Assembly: GCA_903911825.1 (NCBI GenBank)
Contig: CAIWFB010000194.1
Span: 2,070 to 66,069, forward strand
Origin: an uncultured Verrucomicrobia subdivision 3 bacterium
GTDB taxonomy: Bacteria; Verrucomicrobiota; Verrucomicrobiia; Limisphaerales; UBA11358
Length of the DNA stretch: 64,000 bases
Direction: 5' to 3'
Below the pieces are notes generated by a model. The model was not told the DNA's origin and made no database searches. It saw only the letters and a list, made by a program, of their open reading frames with translations. Below, piece after piece: positions 10,464 through 63,610 of the stretch. Numbering within the stretch: position 1 is the first letter of the stretch; each line of letters begins with the position of its first letter. A program made the translations under genes and the position numbers.

Positions 10464-10539
10464 GTTCAGGGTTGTCGGACTCGGGTCCAACAAGGTTTCA
10501 TCGGCTAACCCTGAAAACGACTGAAGGAAAAACTCTGCC

Positions 10540-11934: not shown

Positions 11935-12000
11935 CACTGAATGAAAAGTAGCAGCGCCCGCCGTGAAGTCCAAGCTTGGAAACTAAGCCGATTTTGCCCA

Positions 12001-13174: not shown

Positions 13175-14949
13175 GTCAGGTTTCGGATGAAAAGGAACGT
13201 CTGGTCATCGGCCAACGGCGCCTCGCCGCGAAACGCCGCCAGTCGGGCGAGCAACGCTTGCTTGCCGGTGATGGCGTCGCGCGTTTGCGCGGCGGCTTCG
13301 GCGAACAGGCGGGTCAATTTATTTTCCGCGAGCATTTCACCGGTGGCATTGCGGAGTTCGCTCAAGCCATCGGTGTAAAGCAACGCCGCCGCGCCCGCCG
13401 CGAGCGCGGTGACCGTCTGCGGATACGTCGTGTCGGGTTCGATGCCGAGCGGAAAACCCGCGCTGCCGGGCGCGACGGCATCGGCTTCGCCCGCGCGCCA
13501 CACGAGCAATGGACAATGCCCGGCGCTGGCGGAGATGAGTTCGGCGCGGGCGGGATTCACATAAACCACTTTGGCGGTGATGAACATGTCCACGCGCGAC
13601 AGGTCGGGGAAGAGAATGCGATTGGCAGCGGCGAGCAATTCGCCCGGCGCGGAAAATAATTGGGGCATCGAACGAACGGTGCTGCGCAGCACGGCGGCGA
13701 AGAGCGCGGCGGGCACGCCTTTGCCCATGACATCGGCGATGACCAACAACACCGCGCCGTCGCTCGCAGGAATGGCATCGTAAAAATCACCCCCGACCTG
13801 ACGGGCACTTTCGCACGACGCGGCCAGCGCGAACGGCGGGCACGCGGGCAAATGCGCGGGGAGCAGCGAGCGTTGGATGTCGGCCGCAATCTGCAATTCC
13901 CGCTGCGTGACCTGCGTGCGCGTGCGGTCGTCGAGCAGGCGGGCATTGACGATCTGGATCGCGAAGAAATCGATGAACGAGTGGAGCAAGTTCACTTGCG
14001 CCGCCGTGAAAGGACGTTCCGCCGCGCGTCGCCCGAGTGTGGCGGTGCCGACGAGCTGATCCGCCACAAAAAACGCGTGGCAAACGCCATGGCCCAAGGG
14101 CATCAACGCACGGAGCGGGTCGCCTTCCGGCAGCGGTTCTTCGGGCCCGAACCAGATATCCTGGTGATTCCGCGCGGCACCAACTTCAGCAGCAGCGGAA
14201 TTTTTCCCCAACGCCACGGGCGGCAACTTGGCTCCGGTTTCCGGCGCGGAAAAAACCGTTTCCAATTGCGAGCCATCAGCGGAAACCAGGCGCAACACAG
14301 CGGCATCGGCTTCGGCGATCTGCATGAGATCGCGCAAGAGGCGCGGGGCGAATTCGCCCAAATCCGTCTGCACACCGAGCTCGGCACTGTAACGGAACAT
14401 GGCCACGAGACTTTCGTAGCTGGACGCCAGCTCGGCAGTCATCTCGGTCAGCGCGGTTTCGGCGTCGGCGAGTTTCTGCTGCAACTGGCTGACGTCGGGA
14501 AATAATTCATGGCCGCCCGCAGGCCGAGCGCGGCGCAGCACCAAAACATTTTCGGCCAAGCCGCGCAGATAGAAAATTTTATCCGTCAACGATTCCATCA
14601 AGTAGAGGCCGCGACCGTGCTCGGCGTCTTCTTCCGGCAACTTGATTTCCGTGGGCCACTCGAAGCCGGCAGTGTGATCGGTCACGCGCACTTCGATGTC
14701 GCGGGCACCACAGGAAACTTCGATGGCTACAGGAGATTTCCGCGCCTCGGGGCTGGCGTATTTGACGGCGTTGTTGGCCGCCTCGACGAGCGCGAGTTCC
14801 CACGCGCCCAGCTCGGCTTCGTTCAAACCGCGTTCCGCCAGCCAGCGGCCGACCTGCTGCGTGGCCCCGCGCACGGCGATAAATTCGCACGGAATTTCCA
14901 GGCGCAACACGATCCGATGGTCGGCATTGGGGCTGTTGGCGGCACTCAT
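13171..14949 (-). CDS. Fusion protein: RsbW-like HATPase (anti-sigma serine kinase type) + GAF + PP2C/SpoIIE phosphatase
   Basis: The N-terminus reads ELALVEAANNAVKYA...VTDHTAGF...GRGLYLM (HATPase_c_2 type). The centre is GAF-like. The C-terminus has PP2C motifs (GGDFYD, VIADVMGKGVPAA, TDGLSE, DDQTFL). I set the start at the ATG at 14949, which makes an ATGA overlap with the upstream kinase stop; the longer track ORF has an Arg-rich, implausible leader. Confidence 0.85.
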   Translation of the reverse strand: MSAANSPNADHRIVLRLEIPCEFIAVRGATQQVGRWLAERGLNEAELGAWELALVEAANNAVKYASPEARKSPVAIEVSCGARDIEVRVTDHTAGFEWPTEIKLPEEDAEHGRGLYLMESLTDKIFYLRGLAENVLVLRRARPAGGHELFPDVSQLQQKLADAETALTEMTAELASSYESLVAMFRYSAELGVQTDLGEFAPRLLRDLMQIAEADAAVLRLVSADGSQLETVFSAPETGAKLPPVALGKNSAAAEVGAARNHQDIWFGPEEPLPEGDPLRALMPLGHGVCHAFFVADQLVGTATLGRRAAERPFTAAQVNLLHSFIDFFAIQIVNARLLDDRTRTQVTQRELQIAADIQRSLLPAHLPACPPFALAASCESARQVGGDFYDAIPASDGAVLLVIADVMGKGVPAALFAAVLRSTVRSMPQLFSAPGELLAAANRILFPDLSRVDMFITAKVVYVNPARAELISASAGHCPLLVWRAGEADAVAPGSAGFPLGIEPDTTYPQTVTALAAGAAALLYTDGLSELRNATGEMLAENKLTRLFAEAAAQTRDAITGKQALLARLAAFRGEAPLADDQTFLFIRNLT

Positions 14950-17900
14950 AAGCGCGTTTGTTGACGAAGCCAGTGCTGAAGTTTTTCCGCCGCGCCCGGG
15001 GTTTGCGCGGAAATTTTTTCCAGTTCTCGAATCACTCGTTGGGCGTCGCGGCCTTCGGACGCATCTTCGACGGCGAGGAATAATTCGCCTAGCGCATTCA
15101 GGCCGAACAAGCGCGCCAAGCCTTTGAGCGAATGCGCGGCGCGCTGCAATTCGGGCCATTGTTCATCAACATGCAAGCGGTTGAGTTCGGACAGTCGCTC
15201 GGGTAATTCCGCCAGAAAATCACTGGCCATTTCCACAACGGATTGGCGATCCAGTTCGGTGCACAGTTGTTCGAGTCGCGTGGGATTGAAGTCCTCGTGC
15301 GAACCATCATCGGCGGGCACGGCGGCGAGGAGCGCCTGGTAAAGTTGCTGCGCGGTGAACGGCTTGGCGAGGTAATCGTCCATGCCCGCCGCGAGGCAAC
15401 GCTCGCGTTCGCCGACAAGCGCGTTGGCGGTGAGGGCGATGATGCGGACGTGGCGCTGGGGATTTTTCTCGGCTTCGATTTTGCGAATGGCGGCGGTGGC
15501 TTCGAGGCCGTCGAGCTCGGGCATGTTGCAATCCATGAGCACGGCATCAAATTCGCCGAGAATGAAACGATCCACGACTTCGCGACCGTTCACGGTCCAA
15601 TCCGCTTTGGCGCCGAAGGACGCGAGCATCAATTGGCCGAGCTTGCGGTTGAAAGGATGATCTTCCGCCGCGAGAATTTTTAGTCCGGAAATGGGCGTTT
15701 GCACCGCGCCGCTGGGGTCGCGGCGGCGGAGCTCGGTTTCCGTGACGGGCGTCGCGGGGCGGATGGCTTCAACTTTCTCGCGGAGCACGAGGCTGACGAG
15801 CGCGTTGAAAAACGGTTCTTCTTTGGCTGGCTTGAGCAAGACGCTGGCAAAACTGGCGATCTCTTTTTCATCCGCTCCGACACTGGCGGTGGGGCTGGAG
15901 AGCAAAATGAATTGCACCTGTTCGCGGCTCGCCACGATCAGATCGCGCAACTCGGCGCCGCCGGTGATGAGCATTTCATCGTCCAGCAACACCACGGGAA
16001 TCGGCGCGGTGCGCGAGCCGTGTTGGAGTTCGCGAAACAGTTCCGGCACGGTGGTGGTGGCCCGATTTTCCACGCCCCAACCGCGCAGTTGTTCGCCGAG
16101 GGATTCACGCAGATTCGCACTGGTGGCAGCGATCAAAACGCGCAAAAAAACCAGGCCGGGAAAATTGTGAGGTAACGGCGCGGTCGCAGCGGGGGCCAAC
16201 GGTAATTCAAACCAGAAGGTGGAACCCGCGCCGCTGGTGCTGGTCACGCCGATCTTGCCGCCCATCAATTCCACGATTTTACGGGAAATGGCGAGGCCGA
16301 GGCCGGTGCCGCCAAATTTCCGCGACGACGAGGTGTCGGCCTGCGTGAACGGCTGAAATAATTTTTTGATCTGTTCGGCCGTCAAGCCGATGCCGGTGTC
16401 GGTGACTTCAAAGCGCAAATTAATCTTGCCCGGCAAGGCGAGCAGTGATTCCACGCGCACGGTGACTTCGCCGTGCTCGGTGAATTTCACGCCGTTGCCG
16501 ACGAGGTTGAGCAGCACTTGTCGCAAGCGCGCGGCGTCGCCGACCACGCGAGCGGGCACGGTGCGTTGGACGATAGCGGTGAGGCCAAGCGATTTTCCAG
16601 GCTCGCGCGAAACGGAATTTTCCAGCACGCTATCAATGACGGCGCGCAGGGAAAACTCCTCCTGCGCGATATTCATTTTCCCCGCTTCAATTTTGGAAAA
16701 ATCGAGGACGTCGTTGATGACAAGGAGCAGAGAATTGGCGCTCTCGGCGGCGGCGCTGGCGAATTCGCGCTGGCGCGGGTCGAGACGCGTCTGGGTGAGC
16801 AGCTCAATCATGCCGAGAATGCCGGTGAGCGGCGTGCGAATCTCGTGGCTCATGTTCGCGAGAAATTCGCTCTTGGCGGCGTTCGCCCGATTAGCCTGCT
16901 CGGCGGCGGCGCTGGATTCATTCGCGGCGAACTGCAACTGGCGATTCACCTGTTCGAGCGCGGCCTTGGCTTCCTGCAAAGCGAGTTCCGCTTTTTTGCG
17001 CGGCGTGATGTTCTGGATGACGGCTTGAAATTCAGCGACTTTATCCGCGCTGGAATCGAGGCGACGCAAATTATATTGCTGCCATTCAATGTGGCCATCG
17101 GCAGCTTCGGCACGCCGATCGAAATTCAGCACCGGCTTTTCCTCGGGCAACTGGATGATGTGTTCCTGAAGCGTCCGCGCTTCGTTTTTGACGAGGTCGT
17201 GGTAGAAATTGGTGCCGAGTAATTCCGCCTCCAACTTGCCGTGGAACCGACAGAATGCCGGATTTACAAAGGTGATTTGGCCGTCGGGCCGAAAGCGGCA
17301 GATCAAATCTTCCTGGTCCGCGACGACCGCGCGCAGCCGTTTTTCGTTTTGCACCAGGTCCCGCTGAGCGCGGCGGCGCTCCGCAGCGGCGGCGGCGAGG
17401 AGGAGATTGGAAATCGCCAAAATGCCGATGTAGCTACCGACGAGCCGCAGGCTGTTGGCTTCATTGCCCGTCACGAACGGCCCGCTGCCCTGTTTCAGTG
17501 AATAGATCGCCAGCGTGGCGACGACTACCGTGCTCGTCGCCGCACCGCGCGGGCCAAAACGCAGCGCGCTCCACACTAGAAAGGGATAAGGCAGATAAGC
17601 CAGCGGATATTGTTGCGGCCCATAAACAAACCAGGTGTCGAACGCCAACAAGGTGCCGCCCACCAAGCCCGCCGCGCAGACCAAGGCTTCGAGACTACGA
17701 ACTAAATTCAAGCGCACCGAGGACGGCGCAGCCCACGTAATGAGGACCGGCGTGATCACCAGCGATGCCAAAGCGTTCGGCACCCACCAGGCTAACGTCA
17801 CCGGAAAAATGGCATCCCACGGAATTTTGCCGGCATACGCCAAGCCCACCGCCGTGAAACAGGCATTGACCGTGGTGCCGAGCACGCTCGCCAGCAGGAT

Positions 17901-18269
17901 GTAGCCCACCGCATCGCGCGTTTGCTCCATCGCATTATCGAAATTCACGAAGCGCTTCAGCAGATACGCACAGATGATCGCGCCAAAGGTGTTACCCAGC
18001 ACCAGGCCCAGCGTGGACAGACCCAGCGGGGCGCCACTCATGAAAGAAACTAAAACCACGCCCAGCGCGATCCCCGGCCAGTAGCCGTAGCCAAAAATGA
18101 GAATCGCTGCGAGCGCCACACCGGCGGCGGGCATCACTAATTGAGTGCTCCCAGCCAGAAAGGCGGCCTCCCGACCGAGCAACCCGCCCATAAAATAAAG
18201 CGCCATCAGCATCACCACGCGCGTAGCGGTGGTCAGGTGCGATTTTTGGGGGCGGTTCACGACGCCCAT
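14946..18269 (-). CDS. Hybrid sensor histidine kinase (MASE1 membrane domain-PAS-HisKA-HATPase-degenerate REC-REC-Hpt)
   Basis: The 1107-aa product has a multi-TM MASE1-like N-terminus, a PAS domain (FVNPAFCRFHG), an H-box (FLANMSHEIRTPL), G-boxes (DTGIGL, GGTGLGLAIS), a receiver (AVLMDCNMPELDG...LAKPF) and an Hpt (AAHSLKGLARLFG). Confidence 0.9.
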   Translation of the reverse strand: MGVVNRPQKSHLTTATRVVMLMALYFMGGLLGREAAFLAGSTQLVMPAAGVALAAILIFGYGYWPGIALGVVLVSFMSGAPLGLSTLGLVLGNTFGAIICAYLLKRFVNFDNAMEQTRDAVGYILLASVLGTTVNACFTAVGLAYAGKIPWDAIFPVTLAWWVPNALASLVITPVLITWAAPSSVRLNLVRSLEALVCAAGLVGGTLLAFDTWFVYGPQQYPLAYLPYPFLVWSALRFGPRGAATSTVVVATLAIYSLKQGSGPFVTGNEANSLRLVGSYIGILAISNLLLAAAAAERRRAQRDLVQNEKRLRAVVADQEDLICRFRPDGQITFVNPAFCRFHGKLEAELLGTNFYHDLVKNEARTLQEHIIQLPEEKPVLNFDRRAEAADGHIEWQQYNLRRLDSSADKVAEFQAVIQNITPRKKAELALQEAKAALEQVNRQLQFAANESSAAAEQANRANAAKSEFLANMSHEIRTPLTGILGMIELLTQTRLDPRQREFASAAAESANSLLLVINDVLDFSKIEAGKMNIAQEEFSLRAVIDSVLENSVSREPGKSLGLTAIVQRTVPARVVGDAARLRQVLLNLVGNGVKFTEHGEVTVRVESLLALPGKINLRFEVTDTGIGLTAEQIKKLFQPFTQADTSSSRKFGGTGLGLAISRKIVELMGGKIGVTSTSGAGSTFWFELPLAPAATAPLPHNFPGLVFLRVLIAATSANLRESLGEQLRGWGVENRATTTVPELFRELQHGSRTAPIPVVLLDDEMLITGGAELRDLIVASREQVQFILLSSPTASVGADEKEIASFASVLLKPAKEEPFFNALVSLVLREKVEAIRPATPVTETELRRRDPSGAVQTPISGLKILAAEDHPFNRKLGQLMLASFGAKADWTVNGREVVDRFILGEFDAVLMDCNMPELDGLEATAAIRKIEAEKNPQRHVRIIALTANALVGERERCLAAGMDDYLAKPFTAQQLYQALLAAVPADDGSHEDFNPTRLEQLCTELDRQSVVEMASDFLAELPERLSELNRLHVDEQWPELQRAAHSLKGLARLFGLNALGELFLAVEDASEGRDAQRVIRELEKISAQTPGAAEKLQHWLRQQTRL

Positions 18270-42023: not shown

Positions 42024-42884
42024 TTATTTTTTCGGTGCTTTTGGCTTTGGCTTGCGCGCGTCGGCGATAAAGCTTCCCAGCAGATAACTCCGCTCTGTAT
42101 CCGGTGTGCAGAGATAAATTTTCCCCGGCAAATGATTGTTTGCCAGCGCGCCGAATTCCAAACGCAGCGCATAACCGGCTTCGTAATTTTCTTTTTGCAC
42201 CACGCCATCCGCATCTTTCCAGCGCAACGAAACTTTTGCGGCCTTCTCCGCGTTGGTGCTGACGTTGATGGTCTGGCCCGCCAACGCTTCCGGTTGTGCG
42301 CCGCTGAAATTAACGAACACCGCAAACTCCACCGGCCCGCGCGTGCCGGCCCGCAACATCAGCGAACCATTCTGCAACGTGCAACGTTCCGCGATAAAAT
42401 CCTGACCATGAATGCGCCCCGCCACCGGTGTTTCCGGCAAAGCATTCGTGCCCAGCGTGAGTGACCAATTCGCGTCGTTCGCAGCGGGGGCGACCACCAC
42501 CGGCTTGGCAGCAACGGTGAAATTCGTTTTGGCCATCGCGGCATTATTAGTGGAAACCAAAGCCGCCTTGCGCGCCGGATGAATGATTGTCACCCAATAA
42601 ATCGCACCAGCCGCCAGCACCATGCCGCCGATGATCAACCCTACGACGAGTGCGCCGGAAACTTTTTTCACCGGCGCGGCATCGGGCTGATCGTAGCCGC
42701 GCACATTGATCTTCTTTTCCGAAACTTTGGTGCCGGTGAGAATGAATTTGGAATCGGCCGAGGGCGCTTGCGGCGCGGTGATTTTCTGAAAGCAAGTGGG
42801 GCAATCCATGACCGTGCCCGCCTGCGAAACGTCGCATTTCATGTGCTGACCGCACACCGGACAGGCAAATTTGAACTCGCTCAT
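42024..42884 (-). CDS. Zinc-ribbon-anchored single-pass membrane protein of unknown function
   Basis: The N-terminus has CPVCGQH...(16 aa)...CPTC. One TM follows (LVVGLIIGGMVLAAGAIYWV), then a roughly 180-aa extracytoplasmic domain and a Lys-rich tail. Confidence 0.65.
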   Translation of the reverse strand: MSEFKFACPVCGQHMKCDVSQAGTVMDCPTCFQKITAPQAPSADSKFILTGTKVSEKKINVRGYDQPDAAPVKKVSGALVVGLIIGGMVLAAGAIYWVTIIHPARKAALVSTNNAAMAKTNFTVAAKPVVVAPAANDANWSLTLGTNALPETPVAGRIHGQDFIAERCTLQNGSLMLRAGTRGPVEFAVFVNFSGAQPEALAGQTINVSTNAEKAAKVSLRWKDADGVVQKENYEAGYALRLEFGALANNHLPGKIYLCTPDTERSYLLGSFIADARKPKPKAPKK

Positions 42885-50781: not shown

Positions 50782-51702
50782 GTGCCAGAAGAAAAATCTA
50801 ATTTAAGCCAGTCGGCCGCACCGTTGCGCCCCGCTAATCGCCGTCGTGGTCGTCGTGGTGGTCGTGGTCGCGGACGTGGTCCGCGTCCCGCTGCGGATAA
50901 AAACGCCGCGCCCGAAACCGAAGAAAATTCCAGCGCTCCTGAACCTACGGAAGAAAACCATACTCCCGAGGAAAACGGCGAAGCCGAAACCGACACCTCG
51001 GGGGGGTTTCGCGAACCGCACGCGGAAGAACCCGCTGATTTTGCGTCGCACGACACTGATGGACACGCGCCCGAAGGTGAACCCCACGCGGAAGCCTTGC
51101 CAGAGCGAGAAGCGCCGATTCGCCCGGAACAACGCGAACGTCGCCAGCCTGACCGGCAGCAAGAGCGCCGTCAGGATCGCCCCGACCAGCGCCAAGAACG
51201 CCAAGAGCGTCCCCCCCAGCCGGAGCGCCAAGCGCCGAAGCCGTGGGTGAAGCCCGCTGATTTTCGCCCTGCGGAAACTTCCGCCATCGCGCAGGCTGTG
51301 GAGCACGCTACGGAAATCGCCATTTCGCTGAAGAACATGATTGATCAACTCGACGAAGTGCTCGAACTCGTCGAAGTGGCCGAGCGTCAAAAAGTGGTGG
51401 ACGAACGCGAACTGGAAGAGTTGCGCCGCGCTTTGCGTCGCATCCAACCGGCACGCCGTGACCAACCACCGCAACGCGATCAGCAACAACCGCCGCCGCG
51501 CGAACAACGGGATCAGCGTGATAATCGCGAGCCACGCGAACCGCGCCGTGACCGCGAAGATTTCCGCCAGAATCGCGAGCAGCAGCAACGGCAGAATCCG
51601 CCTCCTGCTCCAGTCGCTGAAGCCGCTCCCGCGCCTGCGGTGACGGAAGCTCCGGCACCCGAAGCGCCCGCGCCGGAAACTCCGCCCGCACCGCAAGGCT
51701 GA
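50782..51702 (+). CDS. Highly charged, predicted disordered protein with an N-terminal RGG box and a central helical segment
   Basis: It begins at a GTG with RRRGRRGGRGRGRGPR, then Glu/Pro-rich and (E/Q)R-repeat tracts flanking AIAQAVEHATEIAISLKNMIDQLDEVLELVEVAERQ. I chose the + strand because the flanking genes run the same way. A full-length antisense ORF also exists. Confidence 0.5.
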   Translation: MPEEKSNLSQSAAPLRPANRRRGRRGGRGRGRGPRPAADKNAAPETEENSSAPEPTEENHTPEENGEAETDTSGGFREPHAEEPADFASHDTDGHAPEGEPHAEALPEREAPIRPEQRERRQPDRQQERRQDRPDQRQERQERPPQPERQAPKPWVKPADFRPAETSAIAQAVEHATEIAISLKNMIDQLDEVLELVEVAERQKVVDERELEELRRALRRIQPARRDQPPQRDQQQPPPREQRDQRDNREPREPRRDREDFRQNREQQQRQNPPPAPVAEAAPAPAVTEAPAPEAPAPETPPAPQG

Positions 51703-53763: not shown

Positions 53764-54153
53764 TTATTTTTTGCCCCAGAACGTTTTTGATTCTTCCCCG
53801 CGCTGCTTCACTTTGAGCTGGCCGAGAATGGCGTGCCACCCGATGTAAATCTTGTGCCATTGGGCTTCGAGGCCGCGCAGGGCGCCTTCACTCATCTCGC
53901 TGAGGTAGCGCAACGAGGGCGAATTGCCGATGAGCGTATGGATTTCGTCGCGCGTGGGCGATTGCACTTCGACGCTGGCAAAAATTAATTCCAGCTCCTG
54001 CACGATGATGCTTTTGATCTCGAGAAAATGGTTGTCATCCGCAGGGCCAAATTTTTTGGCGCGGGCGATGGTGATAAAGTGGTTGAACTGTTTCCAGCAT
54101 TCGATATGGGTCTCGATCTGGGTGACCAGTTGGTTGATTTCCTTGGAGGTCAT
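53764..54153 (-). CDS. Hypothetical helical protein (129 aa), last gene of the REC-PATAN operon
   Basis: Only the C-terminal 129 codons of track ORF 53764..55002 look protein-like (MTSKEINQLVTQIETHIECWKQFNHF...). The ATG at 54153 overlaps the upstream stop (ATGA). Confidence 0.55.
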   Translation of the reverse strand: MTSKEINQLVTQIETHIECWKQFNHFITIARAKKFGPADDNHFLEIKSIIVQELELIFASVEVQSPTRDEIHTLIGNSPSLRYLSEMSEGALRGLEAQWHKIYIGWHAILGQLKVKQRGEESKTFWGKK

Positions 54154-54470
54154 GAGCGTGAGGGGGTTGGCGTTGGCATCAACGCGGTTTGCGGAAAAAC
54201 GAAAATGATGGCACCACCGCGCAACTCGCGGGCGGTGAGGTGAACGCTGCCATAATGCAGGCTGACTTCGGCGAGCGGCATCTGCGCGGCGCGGGCTTCG
54301 CGGAAAATTTCCAGCACATCGCGGCCGACGTCGCGCAGCAATTTCTTTGGGTAGGCGGACGACACGGTCGAGGTGACGACCTGGCCATCGCGATCCACCG
54401 TGATGGTGCCGGTGGGCAATTGCTGCACGGCGGCATTGCCGCCCCCGAATAATTTTTTTAAGAATCCCAT
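54150..54470 (-). CDS. Hypothetical small protein (106 aa)
   Basis: It reads MGFLKKLFGGG...TGTITVDRDGQVVTSTV...LTARELRGGAIIFVFP. It overlaps the upstream gene by 13 nt and the downstream gene by 4 nt. Confidence 0.55.
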   Translation of the reverse strand: MGFLKKLFGGGNAAVQQLPTGTITVDRDGQVVTSTVSSAYPKKLLRDVGRDVLEIFREARAAQMPLAEVSLHYGSVHLTARELRGGAIIFVFPQTALMPTPTPSRS

Positions 54471-55531
54471 GACGCAACAAGTTTACGGCTTTTTTCTGCA
54501 AGCTGTTCGGTGGCCTCGGGGGGCCAGCCCACGAGGAATACGCGGTCGCCGCGCTGCAACATGATGACCTGGCGTTCCATATTTTGTCCGGCAACGTGGG
54601 CGAGCGGTCCGGCCCCGATCCGCTCACCGAGACGACGAGCGATTTTGGCGGTGGAACGCGCCCATTTGGCCATGGCGGCGGCGTTTTGCGTGCCGAGCAC
54701 CTCGGGTTCGCCATGACCTTCCGGCGGAATGGCGATGACAAACTCGGCGCCTTCGCGCGTGAGTTGCGAAAGTTTCCACATCGTTTTACGATGACTATTG
54801 GTCTCGGCCGTCTCGGGCGTTTCGAGCGCGGGATTTTCCGCTTCATCCATCGTCTGCGCCGATTCGAGCAAGAGCGCATTGACCGGTTTATGAATGGTGC
54901 GTTCGCGCTGCGGTTCCGGTGGCAGATTTTCAAACGTGCCGGTCTTCCAAGCGAGCAGCCGTTGAAAAGCCATTTCACCGCGTGCGCCGTCGAGTTCGGC
55001 ATCGATCAATTCCCCATCCTGCAACCATAGTTTCGCCACGAGCGGCCCACGCGTGATGCGCAGCACTGTGGACGTGCGCGAGAGACATTCCATCTGGATG
55101 ATGTCCATCAGGCTCTTGCTTTGGATGCCGCGAAAGCCGACTTCATTTTCGCGCCCGAGCAACGATTCCAAGCATTCGTTGAACTGCTTGGCGCTCCGCT
55201 GCATTTCAGTTTTGAGCCAGAATAAATCCACGCCTAACGCGTAGGCACGCGAACGAAAATCTTCATCTTCCAACCCGCTCAACACCACGGTGCGGACATC
55301 GGGAAATTGGCGGCGCACGATGGCGAGCATCTGTAAGCCGTCAATGCGCGGCATTTTCAGATCACAGATGAGCAGGCGCACGGGTTCGGTTTCCAGCAAA
55401 GCCAGCGCCCGTTTAGCGGTATTAGCGGTGAGGATTTCCGGGTGACTTGGTAAATCCGCAAATAGGTCGCGACACAGCGCGAGCCAATCGGCGTCATCAT
55501 CCAGCAACAAGATTTTATGGCGTTTATCCAT
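54458..55531 (-). CDS. Response regulator with PATAN/DUF4388 domain and a Roadblock/LC7-like C-terminal domain
   Basis: The REC domain reads ILLLDDD...LLICDLKMPRIDG...VVLSG. The DUF4388 pattern reads GFRGIQSKSLMDIIQMECLSRTSTVLRITRGPLVAKLWLQDGELIDAEL.GARGEMAFQRLLAWKTGTFE. The C-terminus (FVIAIPPEGHGEPEVLG...QVIMLQRGDRVFLVGW) is Roadblock-like, which is a tentative call. Confidence 0.78.
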   Translation of the reverse strand: MDKRHKILLLDDDADWLALCRDLFADLPSHPEILTANTAKRALALLETEPVRLLICDLKMPRIDGLQMLAIVRRQFPDVRTVVLSGLEDEDFRSRAYALGVDLFWLKTEMQRSAKQFNECLESLLGRENEVGFRGIQSKSLMDIIQMECLSRTSTVLRITRGPLVAKLWLQDGELIDAELDGARGEMAFQRLLAWKTGTFENLPPEPQRERTIHKPVNALLLESAQTMDEAENPALETPETAETNSHRKTMWKLSQLTREGAEFVIAIPPEGHGEPEVLGTQNAAAMAKWARSTAKIARRLGERIGAGPLAHVAGQNMERQVIMLQRGDRVFLVGWPPEATEQLAEKSRKLVASWDS

Positions 55532-55790
55532 TTCTGATTTTTCTAACCGCTAACCGCGGCGGTTGGCAAACACAAGCGCGAAAACTACGAACTTCACATA
55601 GCAATCCGCGTTCCCTGCTGGAATCAGCGATTTTACGCGTAAATGGGACATTTCCCAAAGCCACGAGTCCTACCGTGGGACAAGCCCTTAACCTTTTGTG
55701 CGGCGAACCGAAGTCTAAGGTCGTGGCGCGGATTCTGCTGAATAACGCCAGAACGGTCAGGCGGACGGTTCAAACCAAACAAAAAATGTC

Positions 55791-57530
55791 ATGGCTATCT
55801 CGGTGAAATCTAAATTTGCAGGTCTGCTGCGCGGCTTGTTGCGGCAGATGGACAGCCCGGAAACTCCCCGGCCAGTTACTGCCGCCGTGCCGCCAGCCCA
55901 CTCGGCTGCCAGCCCCGTTGCGCCCACTGTTTCCACCGCCAAAACTACTCCCGCGACCACCGCTGCCACCGCGCTGGCGGAAAACGAAATTGATATTCCG
56001 CTCGCTTCCGTCGTCAACGGTTTGCCGATGGAACTGCGCGCCAAGTTAATGTCTGCCCCCAGTCCGAACGCCACGATTCGCCTGACCGCTGATACCGTCA
56101 TCAGCCAACTCGGTTTCGGGGCCGTGAAAATTTCGTTTGGCGAATTGCGCCAACTGGCTCCTGGATTATTTGCCAATTCCGGAGGTGAACACGATAACCG
56201 CCCGGTTAGCCTGCCGTTGCAAGAAATTCTTTCTCGCGTGAATCCGGCCTTGCTCAACCGCCGCCAAGTCAAAAAAGTGGAAGTGGCCGACGAGATTGCC
56301 GGACCGTTCGGGGAACGTGGTCGCGGCGTCGCTTTTACCACCAACCCGTTGAAGGCGCCAATTGCCCCAGCCAACTTGACCCCACATCTGCCGCCGCCAG
56401 TAACCGCACCCGAACCCTCGGTCCCCATCACTTTTAAGTCTCGCGAAATCACGCCTGCACCAGCAACGCCAGCGCGCGCCCTCACCCCAACCCCCAATGG
56501 CAATGGGCATACCGACCTTTTCCCCCTGCCGCCCGGCTTGAAATTAACGCCGCCCACCAATGGTCAGGGCAGTCATCACGGAAGCAACTCGGTTCCCAAT
56601 TCGCCACTCACTCCCTACGGCCTGAAAATCACGGCGACCCCCGCGTTCGCGGCCACCCCGATCGTCCCGGAAGCGCCAGCAGCACCGACCATCTTTACGA
56701 CGCTCGCCGATCTTTCCGAAAATTGGCCCGCCGAATTACGGAACGAAATCATGCGTTCCCCGCTCGCTAATGTCAGCGTGCCCTTGCCCGGCGACATCAT
56801 CGAACCCGGCTTAAAGCGCGGCCGCGTGGCGATGTCCTGGAAACAATTACGCACGCTGGCGCAGCCGAGTTCGGCGCCCTCGCCCAACGATCATCTGGAA
56901 TTGGAACTGCCGTTGAAAATCATCGCGCCGATGTTCCTCGCCGCGAAGAAAAACGTTTCGCGTCCCCAAGCGAAAGTCGCCGTGACGTCAGACATTCCAG
57001 ATTTATTTTTCGGTTTCCCGCAACCCACGGCACCCGCACCAGCGGCCGTTGTGCCGCCGCTGCCGAAATCGCAGGACACCAATTTTTATGTCTGGGGCGA
57101 AAAAGGCGAAGCCCCGCAATTGGATGAAGCCGGTTTGCGCCGAGGCGAAAATCCGCAGACGGATTTCTTGAGTCGTCAAGCGCACCCCAAAGAAGTCGTC
57201 GCCCGCGCCGCCGCTTTGCCAGGCGTGGCCGGAGCCGTGGTAGCGCTGCCGGATGGCTTGCGCGTGGCCAGCCAGGTGCCGACCGAATTGAATGCCGACA
57301 CACTCGCGGCTTTTCTCCCGCAGATTTTTGAACGCGTGAACCAAAGCACCCGCGAGTTGCGCATGGGCACTTTGAACAATGTCTGCTTCACCGTCGGCAA
57401 CGTCCCATGGAAAATTTTCCGCGTGAACTCCGTTTACTTTGCCGCGTTTGGCCGAGCCGGAGAAGGTTTACCGACCGCCCAACTCGCGCAACTCGCTATC
57501 GAACTCGATCGTAAAAAATCTCAACTCTAA
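55791..57530 (+). CDS. Proline-rich protein with a duplicated N-terminal module and a C-terminal Roadblock/LC7 domain
   Basis: The 579-aa product has internal repeats at aa 67-155 and 301-386 separated by Pro-rich linkers. The C-terminus (aa ~466-572: VVARAAALPGVAGAVVALPDGLRVAS...VCFTVGNVPWKIFRVNSVYFAAFG) fits Roadblock/LC7. Confidence 0.7.
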   Translation: MAISVKSKFAGLLRGLLRQMDSPETPRPVTAAVPPAHSAASPVAPTVSTAKTTPATTAATALAENEIDIPLASVVNGLPMELRAKLMSAPSPNATIRLTADTVISQLGFGAVKISFGELRQLAPGLFANSGGEHDNRPVSLPLQEILSRVNPALLNRRQVKKVEVADEIAGPFGERGRGVAFTTNPLKAPIAPANLTPHLPPPVTAPEPSVPITFKSREITPAPATPARALTPTPNGNGHTDLFPLPPGLKLTPPTNGQGSHHGSNSVPNSPLTPYGLKITATPAFAATPIVPEAPAAPTIFTTLADLSENWPAELRNEIMRSPLANVSVPLPGDIIEPGLKRGRVAMSWKQLRTLAQPSSAPSPNDHLELELPLKIIAPMFLAAKKNVSRPQAKVAVTSDIPDLFFGFPQPTAPAPAAVVPPLPKSQDTNFYVWGEKGEAPQLDEAGLRRGENPQTDFLSRQAHPKEVVARAAALPGVAGAVVALPDGLRVASQVPTELNADTLAAFLPQIFERVNQSTRELRMGTLNNVCFTVGNVPWKIFRVNSVYFAAFGRAGEGLPTAQLAQLAIELDRKKSQL

Positions 57531-57536
57531 AAAATT

Positions 57537-58151
57537 ATGGCCATCATCAATCAAGCCACCAAAGAACTGCAGGTCAAAATCGTTTATTACGGCCCGGCGA
57601 TGGGCGGTAAGACCACCAACCTGGTGCAGGTGCACGACCACGTGCAAACCGCCGCCGGCAACAAAGGCAAGCTCGTGTCGCTCGCCACGAGTTCCGACCG
57701 CACGTTGTTCTTCGATTTTCTGCCCATCGAAGCGATGACGATCAAAGGTTTCAAAACCAAGTTCCAACTTTACACCGTGCCCGGTCAGGTGATCTATAAC
57801 ACCACGCGCCAATTGGTTTTGCGCGGCGTCGACGGCATCGTGTTCGTAGCCGATTCGCAATACGAAAAAATGCCGGAGAACGTGGAAAGTTTTCAGAACC
57901 TCGTGGACAACTTGAACACGTTGAAGTTGAACCTCGCGGAAATTCCTTACGTTCTCCAATACAACAAGCGCGATTTGCCGAATGCCGCGCCGACGGAATA
58001 CATGGATTTTCTCCTGAACAACCGCGACGTGCAGGTGCCGTCGTTCGGTGGCACAGCGCACAAATGCGAAGGCGTGTTCGAAAGTTTGAACATGATCACG
58101 CGGATGTTGCTCCAGAAATTTATCAACCAAAGCGTTCCACAATACGCTTGA
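57537..58151 (+). CDS. mglA: Ras-like small GTPase MglA
   Basis: It is colinear with Myxococcus and Thermus MglA: KIVYYGPAMGGKTTNL, SDRTLFFDFLP, KFQLYTVPGQVIYN, GVDGIVFVADSQ, YVLQYNKRDLPNA and GVFESL. Confidence 0.92.
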   Translation: MAIINQATKELQVKIVYYGPAMGGKTTNLVQVHDHVQTAAGNKGKLVSLATSSDRTLFFDFLPIEAMTIKGFKTKFQLYTVPGQVIYNTTRQLVLRGVDGIVFVADSQYEKMPENVESFQNLVDNLNTLKLNLAEIPYVLQYNKRDLPNAAPTEYMDFLLNNRDVQVPSFGGTAHKCEGVFESLNMITRMLLQKFINQSVPQYA

Positions 58152-58154
58152 GCC

Positions 58155-58634
58155 ATGCCCACACTGCCCCAATTGATCGAAGACGACATGCTGCGCTTGG
58201 ACGCCGCGCTGGCGGAGTTCGTCGCGCTGGCCGACGCTACGGCGGCGTTGGTGATTGATAAAGGCGGATTCCTTCTCGCGCAGCGCGGCGATGACAGTTT
58301 GCTCGACTTCACCACCATCGGCGCGCTGGCTTCCGGTGCGTTCATGGCCAATCAAACCATCGCGGGTCTGGTGCATGAAAAGAATTTCAACAGCATTTAT
58401 CAGCAAGGCGAAAAGGTCAGCATGCTCGTCTGTGATGTGGATGAACATTGCCTGCTGGTCGCGATTTTCCCGTCGCAATTCGGCGTAGGCGTGGTGCGTT
58501 ATTTTGCTAACCAAGCCATCAGCCGCGTCGCCGCCCAAATGGTAGTGGCGGGCGAACGGGCGCCCGGACGTGGCTTGGATTTGTCCGTCTTGAACATGGC
58601 GAATCCGCAAGAGCTTTTTCGGAAGAAAATTTAA
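58155..58634 (+). CDS. mglB: MglB (Roadblock/LC7-family GAP of MglA)
   Basis: The 159-aa product lies 3 nt after mglA. The pattern ALVIDKGGFLLAQRG...TTIGALASGAFMANQTIAGLV...SMLVCDVDEHCLLVAIF...GVGVVRY is colinear with M. xanthus MglB. Confidence 0.85.
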   Translation: MPTLPQLIEDDMLRLDAALAEFVALADATAALVIDKGGFLLAQRGDDSLLDFTTIGALASGAFMANQTIAGLVHEKNFNSIYQQGEKVSMLVCDVDEHCLLVAIFPSQFGVGVVRYFANQAISRVAAQMVVAGERAPGRGLDLSVLNMANPQELFRKKI

Positions 58635-58643
58635 CGGAGGTTT

Positions 58644-59912
58644 ATGGATACCGCACAACAAACCAATGACCTGAACCGCGTCTTGACTGCGCTACTGCAA
58701 AGCGCTGGGGGCATTTCTGATTTGCTTTTTGTGCCGGGCAAACCGCCCCAAACCGAAGTCTATGGAGCACTGGAAACGCCGGATATCGGTGAACCGGTGC
58801 TGACGGGACTGCGCATCGAAGGTTTCGCCAGGGTCATCATGAAAGGCAACGTCAAGTTGCAACAAGATTTGACAGAGCGCGGATCATGCGATTGCAGCTA
58901 TACGTTGGGTGAGGCGAACCGTTTTCGCGTGAACATCTATCGTCAAAACGGAAGTTTCGCGATGGTCCTACGCCGGTTATCCACTTCGGTGCCCTCGCTC
59001 CAATCGCTCGGTCTGGCACCGATTTTTGCGGATCTCATCAAAGAGAAAAACGGCCTCGTGTTCGTGACCGGCGGTTCGGGCAATGGCAAAACCACCACGT
59101 TGGCGGCGCTGTTGAACGAAATCAATCAGACGAGTAAAGTTCATGTAGTGACGTTGGAAGACCCGATTGAATTTCTGCACCCGCAATTGAACTCCACGTT
59201 CAGCCAACGCGAACTGGGGCGGGATTTTTTTAATTTCCCCGACGGTTTGCGCGCCGCTTTACGGCAAGCGCCGAAAGTGATTTTTGTTGGTGAAATCCGC
59301 GATCGTGAGACGTTGGAGATTGCGCTCACAGCGGGCGAAACGGGGCATCTGGTTTTTAGCACACTGCACACGATCAGCGCGGGCCAGACGATCAACCGCA
59401 TTCTCGGGATGTTCAATAAGGACGAGGAGCAACTGGTGCGCGAGCGCTTGGCGGCTTCGCTACGCTACATCATCGGCCAGCGTTTGGTGCCGAAGCTGGA
59501 TGGCGGCCGACAATTGATCACAGAATTGATGGGCAGCAGCCTGCGCACGCGCGAAGCGATTGAGTTGGGGGAAAACGAAAATCGCCGCTTGCATGATATT
59601 ATTGAAGCCGGATCAAATGCCGGATGGCACAGCTTTGAGCAATCTTTGCTGAAAGCTTACGAAGAAAAATTGATTTCGGAGGAAACCGCCCAACTCTACT
59701 GCATCAATAAACCCAAGATGCGCCAACGTTTGGATTCGGCCAATAGCCGCCAACAACGTCCAGCCAAATCTACTCAAACAGCGCAAATGATCGTGGTGCC
59801 TGCCGCCGCAAAGCCGGTCCTACCACCCATTCTGCCGCAACCAGAGCCGGCCGAGATTACGAAACCTTCCGGGCCCATGTCCATGGTCTCTTCGATGATG
59901 GGCTTGCTGTAG
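58644..59912 (+). CDS. PilT/PilU-family type IV pilus retraction-type ATPase with a Pro-rich C-terminal extension
   Basis: It has Walker A (VTGGSGNGKTTT), an Asp box (TLEDPIEF), Walker B (VIFVGEIRD) and a His box (TGHLVFSTLHT). A tail of about 60 aa follows (PAAAKPVLPPILPQPEPAEI). Confidence 0.88.
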   Translation: MDTAQQTNDLNRVLTALLQSAGGISDLLFVPGKPPQTEVYGALETPDIGEPVLTGLRIEGFARVIMKGNVKLQQDLTERGSCDCSYTLGEANRFRVNIYRQNGSFAMVLRRLSTSVPSLQSLGLAPIFADLIKEKNGLVFVTGGSGNGKTTTLAALLNEINQTSKVHVVTLEDPIEFLHPQLNSTFSQRELGRDFFNFPDGLRAALRQAPKVIFVGEIRDRETLEIALTAGETGHLVFSTLHTISAGQTINRILGMFNKDEEQLVRERLAASLRYIIGQRLVPKLDGGRQLITELMGSSLRTREAIELGENENRRLHDIIEAGSNAGWHSFEQSLLKAYEEKLISEETAQLYCINKPKMRQRLDSANSRQQRPAKSTQTAQMIVVPAAAKPVLPPILPQPEPAEITKPSGPMSMVSSMMGLL

Positions 59913-59991: not shown

Positions 59992-60501
59992 ATGGACATC
60001 ATTTTCAACTGTCCGAACTGTGATCAGGAACTGGCCGTGGATCAAGCTGGTGCTGGCTCACAAATCGAGTGCCCCAATTGCAGCGAAAACCTCACCATTC
60101 CCGCCAGCTCCACAGGTAAGGTGACGACAGGCTCGTTGCCACCGGTGCCACCACCGCCGGTCGCCACCAGCCCGATTGCGACCCCGGCGGCGGCCAAGGT
60201 GGAGCTGCATCTCAAAGTTCCCGTGCGCGATAAACCGAGTGCGCCACTGATTGATAAACCTAGGCCGCCGCTCGAAGTCGTGCAAAAGGGTGCCGGGAAA
60301 AAACTGCGGAGCCATACTATCCGGCACGCCAGTTGCGTTGAATCTGGCCATGATAAGTTCGACGAAAAAGTCTCTGAATTTTTACAACAGGTGGGCGAGG
60401 GTAGCATCATCAGCATCCACACCATCAACTACGAACACTTCGATGTGGGGATTCAAAAAATTGTGACTGACTACGGTTTGATCATTATTTTTCGGGGTTG
60501 A
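59992..60501 (+). CDS. Zinc-ribbon protein with Pro-rich linker and small C-terminal domain (unknown function)
   Basis: The N-terminus has CPNCDQE...(14 aa)...CPNC, then a PPVPPPP linker. The C-terminus reads DKFDEKVSEFLQQVGEGSIISIHTINYEHFDVG...GLIIIFRG. Confidence 0.6.
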   Translation: MDIIFNCPNCDQELAVDQAGAGSQIECPNCSENLTIPASSTGKVTTGSLPPVPPPPVATSPIATPAAAKVELHLKVPVRDKPSAPLIDKPRPPLEVVQKGAGKKLRSHTIRHASCVESGHDKFDEKVSEFLQQVGEGSIISIHTINYEHFDVGIQKIVTDYGLIIIFRG

Positions 60502-62547: not shown

Positions 62548-62578
62548 AACGGCGGACGGCAACGTCCGCCGTTTTTTA
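62548..62578. terminator. Intrinsic terminator shared by convergent genes
   Basis: The hairpin is ACGGCGGACG (62549-62558) paired with CGTCCGCCGT (62563-62572), then a T-run (62572-62577). It overlaps the stop codon of the convergent kinase gene. Confidence 0.65.
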
Positions 62579-63610
62579 TTTCTTCCGCCACCAACTCGTC
62601 ATGCGCTTGGGCTGGTTCGGCTCCTCGGCCGTTTGAGATTGTTGATACAGCAGCAGACTGCGGGCAGCTTCTAACGCCATGATGAATTCGTCATAGCTTA
62701 GAAAACGATCCGCCGGATTTTTTTCCAAGGCCCGGGCAATGGCATCACTGGTCGCCTGTGTAATTTCTGGATTCACCTGATTCGGCGGTGTAAGCGCCGT
62801 GTAAACATGCGCCTGCACGACTTCATCCGGCGTGGGCGCTTCAAACGGCACATGGCCTGTGATGGCGTGATACAACGTGGCTCCGAGGCTATACATGTCG
62901 GACAGAAAAGTTTCCGGCTCGCGCTTAATCTTTTCCGGCGCGACGTAATACGGCGTGCCACGCACGAATTCTCCTCCTTCTTGCTCCGCATCGGTTTTGC
63001 GAGCGATTCCGAAATCCACCAGCTTCGGTTCGTGATCGGAATTGAATAAAATATTGTCCGGCTTGATGTCGCAGTGCAGTAGATCGTGCTTGAGCGCCAT
63101 ATTCAAGGCCGAGGCGATTTTGATGCCCACATCCAGCACTTGGAGCTCCGGCAACAAGCGGAGCTTTTCAATCCGCGTGTCGAGGCTGCCTTGATCTGCC
63201 AATTCCATGACGAGGTAGCTTTCGCCTTCCCATTCATCGAACGTGTAGATGTGAATGATGTTGGTGTGATTCAGTTGGGCGCAGGAACGGGCTTCGCGCA
63301 GAAAATTTTCGCGGGCATTGGGTTCGGCGAGGATTTCCTTTTTAATCATCTTAACCGCCACGAAGCGACCCAGCATGGTGTCCCACGCGCGGTAAACCGT
63401 GGCCATGCCGCCGGAGCCGACTTTGGCGCGCAGCTCAAACTGCCGCAGCAGCATCGGCATCATGATGGCGTGGCCGCACTTTTTGCAGGGCTCGGACGCC
63501 AGCGGGGCGAGGTCGCCGGGAATAAAAGTCTTCGCGTCACAACCCGGACACGTCACCATTTTTAAGGGTCGGTTTACTTCGCTCATTGGTAACTTCAATT
63601 TACCACTCAC
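62576..63610 (-). CDS. Ser/Thr protein kinase (Hanks type) with an N-terminal zinc ribbon
   Basis: The N-terminus has CPGC...(17 aa)...CKKC. The kinase subdomains follow: GSGGMATVY, VAVKM, HCDIKPDNIL, DFGIA and YYVAPE. Confidence 0.9.
   Translation of the reverse strand: MSGKLKLPMSEVNRPLKMVTCPGCDAKTFIPGDLAPLASEPCKKCGHAIMMPMLLRQFELRAKVGSGGMATVYRAWDTMLGRFVAVKMIKKEILAEPNARENFLREARSCAQLNHTNIIHIYTFDEWEGESYLVMELADQGSLDTRIEKLRLLPELQVLDVGIKIASALNMALKHDLLHCDIKPDNILFNSDHEPKLVDFGIARKTDAEQEGGEFVRGTPYYVAPEKIKREPETFLSDMYSLGATLYHAITGHVPFEAPTPDEVVQAHVYTALTPPNQVNPEITQATSDAIARALEKNPADRFLSYDEFIMALEAARSLLLYQQSQTAEEPNQPKRMTSWWRKK

Follow-up and report, generated by a model that had tools for sequence, protein, structure and literature searches.

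The DNA examined here is a stretch of 64,000 nucleotides (nt) from an uncultured Verrucomicrobia subdivision 3 bacterium (contig CAIWFB010000194.1), referred to below as the window. Four genes on its plus strand encode a proline-rich scaffold protein (p579), the small GTPase MglA, the Roadblock protein MglB and an ATPase of the PilT/PilU family, and three genes on the opposite strand, reading away from them, encode a REC-PATAN response regulator and two small proteins, p106 and p129 (Table 1). An earlier note on this DNA had described the plus-strand genes as separated by only 6, 3 and 9 nt, and the coordinates of the open reading frames (ORFs) confirmed this spacing. The junctions read TAAaaaattATG between the scaffold gene and mglA, TGAgccATG between mglA and mglB, and TAAcGGAGGtttATG between mglB and the ATPase gene, and a strong Shine-Dalgarno sequence, GGAGG, lies 4 nt upstream of the ATPase-gene ATG. 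The divergent operon, 259 nt upstream of the scaffold gene, is packed just as tightly: the first 13 nt of the p106 gene, at its 5' end, are also the last 13 nt of the REC-PATAN gene, and the p129 start codon overlaps the p106 stop codon (ATGA). We read the locus as a verrucomicrobial MglA/MglB polarity switch, encoded by two divergent, closely packed operons, to which a dedicated PilT-like motor ATPase would have been appended as an output, and give this reading about an even chance of being right. The ATPase is a lineage-specific, optional add-on to an older, conserved six-gene module.

Table 1. Features of the Mgl locus in the window and the corresponding cluster of a third lineage (aa, amino acids; ZnR, zinc ribbon)
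Feature	Position (nt)	Strand	Description
p129	53764-54153	-	129 aa; last gene of the divergent operon; invariant ECWKQFN motif
p106	54150-54470	-	106 aa; N-terminal MGFLKKLFGG at 54441-54470
REC-PATAN response regulator	54458-55531	-	357 aa; Response_reg, DUF4388, C-terminal domain
Divergent intergenic region	55532-55790	.	259 nt, between the two operons
Scaffold p579 gene	55791-57530	+	579 aa; from ORF list
Scaffold N-terminal motif KSKFAGLLRGLL	55791-55856	+	Conserved in alignment
Scaffold domain A	55983-56258	+	aa 65-156; alignments, AlphaFold
Scaffold domain B	56685-56951	+	aa 299-387; alignments, AlphaFold
Scaffold C-terminal Roadblock domain	57153-57515	+	aa ~455-575; Pfam, AlphaFold, Foldseek
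mglA	57537-58151	+	204 aa; MglA-type small GTPase
mglB	58155-58634	+	159 aa; Roadblock/LC7 GTPase-activating protein with C-terminal extension
PilT/PilU-family ATPase gene	58644-59912	+	422 aa; hexameric ATPase paralogue
ATPase Pro-rich tail	59724-59909	+	aa ~361-422; PilT alignments stop near aa 360
Zinc-ribbon protein	59992-60501	+	169 aa; ZnR, Pro-rich linker, C-terminal domain; weak Pfam zinc-ribbon matches
Third-lineage cluster	L080:156-7416	co-directional	REC-Roadblock to MshEN-T2SSE ATPase

The families that the earlier note had assigned to the four plus-strand products held in profile, Protein Data Bank (PDB) and structure searches. The GTPase is indeed nearer to characterized MglA than to other small GTPases: its best matches were MglA of Myxococcus xanthus (E 6e-61) and of Thermus (1e-56), and the next family, Rab35, followed at 2e-5. 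The GTPase shares 54% of its residues, over the full length, with the MglA of M. xanthus. The P-loop GPAMGGKT occupies aa 19-26 and the G4 motif NKRD aa 143-146, and the intrinsic arginine R55 (SDRTLFFDF) and catalytic glutamine Q84 (VPGQ) align with R53 and Q82 of the M. xanthus protein. These alignments identify the GTPase as an MglA equipped with both the intrinsic arginine and the catalytic glutamine. All significant PDB matches of MglB (E ≤ 2.8e-8) were MglB chains, the best at 1e-10, and the only further match listed was an Asgard Roadblock protein at 0.018. MglB matched Pfam Robl_LC7 with 29.8 bits (E 5e-7, cut-off 23) and fell below the cut-off of the NCBIfam equivalog model for Thermus MglB (NF052242; 52.8 vs 200 bits); we classify it from these scores as an MglB homologue that is not an equivalog by NCBI's criterion. 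The window's own proteins occur in public assemblies. In IMG, its MglA is labelled "signal recognition particle receptor subunit beta" and its REC-PATAN regulator "DNA-binding NarL/FixJ family response regulator"; neither label is correct.

In the scaffold, the N-terminal motif KSKFAGLLRGLL is followed by domains A and B and a C-terminal Roadblock domain, with a Pro-rich linker before domain A and a low-complexity linker between A and B; the Roadblock domain had been noticed earlier and was confirmed by Pfam, AlphaFold and Foldseek. The Robl_LC7 match (aa 468-530, E 7e-5) scored 22.9 bits, just below the cut-off of 23. In the AlphaFold model, the region of aa ~460-570 had a predicted local distance difference test value (pLDDT) above 90, and Foldseek matched the C-terminus to Asgard Roadblock, LAMTOR and MglB structures with template modelling (TM) scores of 0.7-0.79 and an E-value of 2e-8. 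The C-terminus, as modelled, has the Roadblock fold. Domains A and B were predicted to be small, confidently folded alpha/beta domains, and the Pro-rich linkers to be disordered. The two domains are homologous to each other (BLASTP 5e-9; hhalign 95%). A fold search of PDB returned no match for domain A (best E 4.4), and even at E ≤ 10 Pfam offered no credible match to domain A, domain B, p106, p129 or the C-terminus of the regulator. Local hhalign comparisons among small families recovered only the relation of domain A to domain B; they were too insensitive and did not link the scaffold Roadblock domain to MglB. The scaffold belongs to a new family, of 669 clusters at E ≤ 1e-30, and combines a Roadblock domain with a duplicated, undescribed domain.

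The REC-PATAN regulator matched Pfam Response_reg (E 1e-15, 58.3 bits) and DUF4388/PF14332 (E 5.5e-15, 55.9 bits, cut-off 25), and its receiver domain keeps D57, S85 and K107, the phospho-acceptor aspartate included. The top PDB match of the profile of its C-terminal domain was the Robl_LC7 protein 7f8f (E 0.018), aligned over nearly the whole chain, and this domain is probably Roadblock-like. The sole PDB match of the p106 profile was the Asgard Roadblock protein 7yh1 (E 0.064), so that p106 may be a truncated Roadblock-like domain. For p129, neither sequence nor profile searches of PDB gave anything meaningful. All three divergent genes are conserved in 23 loci, with identities of 43-80% for the regulator and 52-91% for p129. 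The N-terminal motifs of the scaffold and p106 and the end of the ATPase tail are patterned like amphipathic helices, and MGFLKKLFGG of p106 resembles the membrane-targeting sequence of MinD.

The ATPase passed the threshold of TIGR01420 for the PilT/PilU family (339.7 bits, cut-off 319.1), and its PDB matches were Thermus PilT (E 2e-71), Aquifex PilT (5e-69), PilU (3e-55) and DotB (2e-38). The Asp box LEDPIEF, Walker B motif VGEIRDRET and His box TGHLVFSTLHT are intact. The atypical Walker A motif and Pro-rich tail of about 60 aa, both pointed out in the earlier note, were confirmed from the sequence and PilT alignments: GGSGNGKT fits GxxxxGK[ST] with unusual residues, Gly and Asn taking the places of Pro and Ser in the GPTGSGKS of solved PilTs. 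The pattern G..GNGK[ST] was found in all 120 closest database homologues, most of which end in ..LKGILNGLI. Most mglB-linked copies have the C-terminal motif ...[ML]LKG[IM]LNG[LF][IM] (consensus MLKGILNGLI), of which the end of the window tail, SMVSSMMGLL (nt 59880-59909), is a more degenerate form. Unlinked paralogues of the same metagenome-assembled genomes (MAGs) have the Walker A motif GGTGSGKT and lack this ending. In a neighbour-joining tree, the linked ATPases formed essentially one clade, sister to the unlinked copies; neither this tree nor that of scaffold and MglB, described below, carries support values. Three MAGs with an mglB-linked copy carry a second copy, 64-72% identical, elsewhere. 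A relative in a Desulfovibrionales MAG directly follows a canonical 360-aa pilT gene in a pilT-pilU-like tandem. These comparisons place the ATPase as a specialised PilT/PilU-family paralogue of a verrucomicrobial group.

Two of the unlinked copies (L011:7430-9212 and L019:7433-9215; labels beginning with L denote the loci compared) directly follow and overlap a gene for a 177-aa stand-alone receiver-domain protein, which suggests that each ATPase paralogue is paired with its own signalling protein. An apparent MglB-PilT fusion, P0100 (L001:8001-9776, 591 aa, Robl_LC7 and T2SSE), was considered as Rosetta-stone evidence and rejected. Since tblastn located the MglB C-terminus in another frame, a frameshift within the 3' part of mglB accounts for the long ORF, and P0100 is a pseudogene or an assembly error rather than a domain fusion.

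The order of the four plus-strand genes recurs in 16 further loci, and in 13 of these mglB and the ATPase gene have a spacing of -4 to 35 nt. Neither of the sequence-based outcomes that the earlier note would have taken as a refutation, a GTPase outside the MglA family or a gene order kept in no relative, was obtained. The complete arrangement, with p129-p106-REC-PATAN divergent from scaffold-MglA-MglB-ATPase, is kept in 12 Limisphaerales loci found through the ATPase, where identities to the window are 92-97% for MglA, 68-78% for the ATPase, 61-70% for MglB and 52-62% for the scaffold; across the PilT-carrying Limisphaerales loci, MglA is 92-98% identical. The nearest loci belong to MAGs named Verrucomicrobia subdivision 3 or Limisphaerales, in agreement with the PVC-type (Planctomycetes-Verrucomicrobia-Chlamydiae) host proposed earlier, and the host is a soil or freshwater verrucomicrobium. 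The MglA-seeded metagenome sample took in the best 80 of at least 593 MglA loci, which biases it towards relatives of the window MglA. In these loci, an ATPase gene followed mglB only where MglA was at least ~94% identical to that of the window. The six-gene core of REC-PATAN regulator, p106, p129, scaffold, MglA and MglB persists to loci with MglA only 76% identical. The module is thus not self-contained in the four plus-strand genes, as had been supposed, since the three divergent genes are conserved more widely than the ATPase gene.

A matched pair of loci illustrates the variable presence of the ATPase: the synteny from bacA to the kinase gene is equal in L102 and L103, and the ATPase gene lies between mglB and the zinc-ribbon gene in L102 and not in L103. 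In the neighbour-joining tree of scaffold and MglB, the ATPase-carrying loci formed one clade in which the ATPase-less loci L028, L029 and L103 were nested, and the outgroups had no ATPase gene. This pattern fits a single gain of the ATPase gene and at least two losses in nested relatives.

Mgl operons joined to pilus-type ATPases were also found in other lineages. In the Chthoniobacterales, a homologous scaffold with two A/B-like modules and a C-terminal Roadblock domain is encoded upstream of MglA-MglB, and its gene is preceded by genes for a PilB/GspE-type ATPase and an MshEN-domain protein in all seven metagenome loci with enough upstream sequence and in a 4.18-Mb contig. A pilin-like gene adjoins the cluster in L063 and in the 4.18-Mb contig (L105). 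These loci (L053-L057, L063, L064, L068 and L105; for example, L105:7427-13138) mirror the PilT-linked arrangement. A third, high-G+C lineage (L078 and L080) has co-directional genes for a REC-Roadblock protein, a 1057-aa protein, MglA, MglB and a 691-aa MshEN-T2SSE ATPase. The linkage in the Limisphaerales, the Chthoniobacterales and the third lineage indicates that operonic coupling of Mgl proteins to T2SSE-family ATPases, of extension or retraction type, arose at least three times. The link to pilus motors drawn in the earlier note is therefore supported by the Chthoniobacterales, although it is not unique to PilT, the ATPase there being of PilB type.

Inside the window, the 259-nt region between the two operons is presumed to hold the promoters of both; a promoter scan of it gave only one weak minus-strand consensus match, at chance level. 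Between the four plus-strand genes, no plus-strand terminator-like site was found in a scan whose counts were at chance level overall, and the sole such match inside the unit lies within the ATPase ORF. The only Rfam match in the window was a tRNA-Tyr, with none in the divergent region, and a repeat search returned only short matches at chance level. The G+C content of the window is 50-61%, and the locus shows no compositional break.

Beyond the p129 end of the divergent operon lies uppP/bacA. On the other side, the ATPase gene is followed by genes for a zinc-ribbon protein, bamD, lptE and a Ser/Thr kinase, as assigned from Pfam and synteny with annotated loci. The zinc-ribbon gene was found downstream in nine loci and stands directly after mglB in the ATPase-less L025 and L103. 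The M. xanthus protein GltJ has a zinc-ribbon domain able to recruit MglB and a linker able to bind MglA-GTP (PMC11135422), a precedent that makes the downstream zinc-ribbon protein a candidate Mgl partner. It may instead belong to a bamD-lptE unit, because its gene is always followed by these two. Similar N-terminal CxxC...CxxC zinc ribbons occur in three proteins of the window, namely this one, a 286-aa protein (42024-42884) and the Ser/Thr kinase (62576-63610), and by comparison with GltJ all three may be Mgl partners. Of the signalling genes in the window, a CheA-type kinase gene (Hpt, dimerisation, HATPase and CheW domains) adjoins an unusual WecG/TagA glycosyltransferase-STAS fusion (8322-10493 and 10540-11973, both on the minus strand). 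This CheA may be the kinase that feeds into the REC-PATAN regulator, although 45 kb separate the two. A hybrid sensor kinase of 1107 aa with MASE1, PAS, HisKA, HATPase, REC and Hpt domains is encoded at 14946-18269 on the minus strand. The plus-strand ORF at 50782-51702 encodes an extremely charged, low-complexity protein of 306 aa with an RG-rich N-terminus, Pro/Glu/Arg/Gln-rich repeats and one short helical segment.

The polarity module of Myxococcus (MglA, MglB, RomR/RomX, MglC and RomY) resembles the window in its MglA, with the same arginine and glutamine, in its MglB, a Roadblock GTPase-activating homologue, and in having a receiver-domain protein and additional Roadblock-type proteins. 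The output proposed for the window, type IV pilus motors, is also that of Myxococcus, where it is reached via SgmX, FrzS and SopA. The gene order differs (scaffold-mglA-mglB vs mglB-mglA), as do the partners: the window has the REC-PATAN regulator and the scaffold with its two novel domains, whereas Myxococcus has RomR. In addition, the pilus ATPases of Myxococcus are encoded elsewhere and reached through adaptors, whereas in the window an ATPase gene is part of the operon. MglA and MglB of Thermus thermophilus are also homologous to those of the window (the latter with E 1.6e-9), although the window MglB scored far under the Thermus equivalog cut-off. Work by Salzer et al. in 2015 is said to have found an effect of Thermus MglA/MglB on pilus functions; we know of no scaffold, PATAN regulator or operonic ATPase in Thermus. 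Cyanobacterial PatA-type regulators (PixG, PixE and LsiR) combine PATAN/DUF4388 and receiver domains as the window regulator does, but the latter has them in the reverse order, REC before PATAN, and has the additional C-terminal domain. The partner of the PatA-type PATAN domain is PilB, whereas the ATPase of the window is PilT-like.

PilU of M. xanthus (MXAN_1995) shares with the window ATPase a PilT/PilU core with intact Walker A, Walker B, Asp and His boxes and a disordered C-terminal extension with a short conserved element near its end (PMC13584747). The tail of the window ATPase is shorter and unrelated in sequence, and its gene is linked to mglB. The Streptomyces conservon (CvnA-D) is likewise an operon in which a GTPase of the MglA family and a Roadblock protein are joined to two-component signalling (PMC4316618), but it has a histidine kinase and a group 2 GTPase and, unlike the window, neither PATAN nor a secretion-type ATPase. 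In the eukaryotic Ragulator-Rag complex, several Roadblock folds form a membrane-tethered platform for small GTPases, to which the platform proposed for the window may be likened. Ragulator LAMTOR chains were among the best structural matches of the scaffold C-terminus; the analogy would be one of architecture and not of orthology.

Published work makes a connection with pilus motors plausible. The PATAN output domain of Synechocystis binds the N-terminal domains of PilB1 and PilC, and MglA/MglB genes are often found near PATAN genes (bioRxiv 10.1101/2021.06.11.447907). In M. xanthus, MglA controls the formation of type IVa pili (PMC7519303, PMC11580455), which MglA-GTP stimulates through SgmX, FrzS and SopA, and PATAN proteins were among the candidates of a miniTurbo proximity-labelling screen (PMC11580455). 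The disordered C-terminal tail of M. xanthus PilU is functional and, close to the C-terminus, includes a short helix (PMC13584747). It is the PATAN binding to PilB1 and PilC, the effect of MglA-GTP and the PilU tail that lend plausibility to a pilus-motor role. According to Wuichet and Sogaard-Andersen (2014), the genes that surround MglA of groups 1, 4 and 5 differ widely and occasionally include PATAN genes (PMC4316618). The MglA, MglB, PATAN-REC and PilT/PilU families, the tie of MglA to pili and the Mgl-PATAN neighbourhood were thus already known (PMC4316618; 10.1101/2021.06.11.447907), and no description of an Mgl-PilT or Mgl-PilB operon in PVC bacteria, of the scaffold family or of the six-gene verrucomicrobial core was found in the literature.

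The module most likely controls type IV pilus motors and could operate as follows. A kinase would phosphorylate the receiver domain of the REC-PATAN regulator, whose PATAN domain would dock on PilB/PilC at the foot of the type IV pilus machine, as in cyanobacterial PatA-type regulators. Pairing of the several Roadblock-type domains, those of MglB and the scaffold C-terminus and probably also of p106 and the C-terminus of the regulator, would create a platform that determines where MglA carries GTP. The terminal motifs of the scaffold, p106 and the ATPase tail could be amphipathic helices that anchor these proteins to the membrane or to a shared partner, and the resulting phosphorylation-controlled MglA switch on a multi-Roadblock platform is probably membrane-associated. 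The PilT-like ATPase would be made with MglB in a fixed proportion, and the switch would recruit or gate it and so confine pilus retraction, or a PilU-like accessory activity, to one pole.

Several observations weigh against this reading. The Roadblock calls for p106 and the regulator C-terminus are weak. Calculated hydrophobic moments did not separate the terminal motifs from shuffles or control tails, so the idea of membrane helices rests on the pattern of residues alone. Among the window ORFs scanned against Pfam and NCBIfam, there was no pilB, pilC, pilM-Q or pilin gene. The ATPase lacks the AIRNLIRE motif, LRTREAIELGEN standing opposite tAIRNLIrenk of Aquifex PilT, and the motif is missing throughout the verrucomicrobial paralogue group and from the Desulfovibrionales relative. 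Aukema et al. reportedly found in 2005 that AIRNLIRE is needed for retraction. The enzyme is therefore better described as PilT-like than as a proven retraction PilT, and to call it a retraction-type motor, as the earlier note did, goes too far for a member of this paralogue family. The ATPase gene is also missing from most related modules. In 17 loci reached through MglA or the scaffold, where an absence required at least 1.3 kb of downstream sequence, it follows mglB in three (L022, L023 and L104) and is absent from 14. Together with its loss in nested relatives, this implies that the switch works without the ATPase, which is not the integral part it had been taken for. Of the first interpretation as a whole, the protein families, host and gene order stand, and self-containment, the integral ATPase and the retraction-type motor do not.

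The same observations bear on three other explanations. The ATPase could be tied to the switch and yet serve something other than retraction of type IV pili, either another envelope machine, such as a type II secretion-like or uncharacterised PVC surface system, or a PilU-like or regulatory role with no motor function of its own. This is possible, if doubtful: it would account for the replacement of AIRNLIRE by LRTREAIELGEN throughout the clade, for the Desulfovibrionales relative placed directly after pilT, as pilU is, for the several such paralogues in Verrucomicrobia and for the lack of pilus genes in the scanned parts of the 64-kb window, but the ATPase passes the PilT/PilU family threshold and is nearer to solved PilTs than to PilU or DotB, its catalytic boxes are all intact, and a PilB-type ATPase is coupled to a homologous operon in the sister order, where a pilin-like gene lies close by. 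Alternatively, the ATPase gene could be a mere neighbour, a duplicated PilT-like gene that landed between mglB and zinc-ribbon/bamD with no functional tie to the switch. Its presence or absence at the exact site in the otherwise syntenic L102 and L103, its absence from most loci sampled without bias and the further paralogues elsewhere in the genomes are all compatible with such an accident. An accidental neighbour would hardly be expected, however, to keep overlapping or very short spacing in most loci after its gain or to acquire a clade-specific Walker A asparagine and a terminal tail motif, and other paralogues also adjoin a signalling gene, that of the 177-aa receiver protein, while two other lineages have independently coupled Mgl operons to T2SSE-family ATPases. 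We regard this explanation as quite unlikely. Very unlikely, in our view, is that MglA/MglB steer a polarity process apart from surface appendages, for instance in cell division or in positioning the growth zone, the ATPase having been recruited secondarily. The module always lies beside uppP/bacA and, on the other side, bamD-lptE, which serve envelope biogenesis, and most modules have no ATPase gene; but these housekeeping genes fall outside the tightly spaced operons, PATAN and MglA have so far been tied experimentally to pilus and gliding machinery (10.1101/2021.06.11.447907; PMC7519303), and the linkage to T2SSE-family ATPases arose three times.

Within the preferred reading of a polarity switch with an appended motor ATPase, a more specific and unlikely proposal is that the conserved tail peptide of the ATPase is bound by MglA-GTP, or else by the multi-Roadblock platform made up of MglB, scaffold, p106 and regulator, and that this switches recruitment or activity of the ATPase at one pole. 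If this were true, the locus would encode a compact, Ragulator-like platform for a GTPase, tethered to the membrane and connected directly to a motor with no adaptor proteins in between, and the Chthoniobacterales would have its mirror image, with an extension motor of PilB type.

Among bacterial polarity switches, MglA/MglB is the best understood, yet nearly everything known about it was learned in Myxococcus, where lineage-specific adaptors lie on the path from GTPase to pilus motors. The window and the Chthoniobacterales loci provide gene-neighbourhood evidence, from an unstudied phylum, for a switch coupled to type IV pilus-family ATPases, and they offer candidate direct partners in the scaffold family, the REC-PATAN regulator, p106, p129 and the tail-bearing PilT paralogue. 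A shortcut from GTPase to motor would not be surprising in principle, and the locus makes it testable. The natural presence and absence of the ATPase gene among close relatives is a ready-made comparative experiment.

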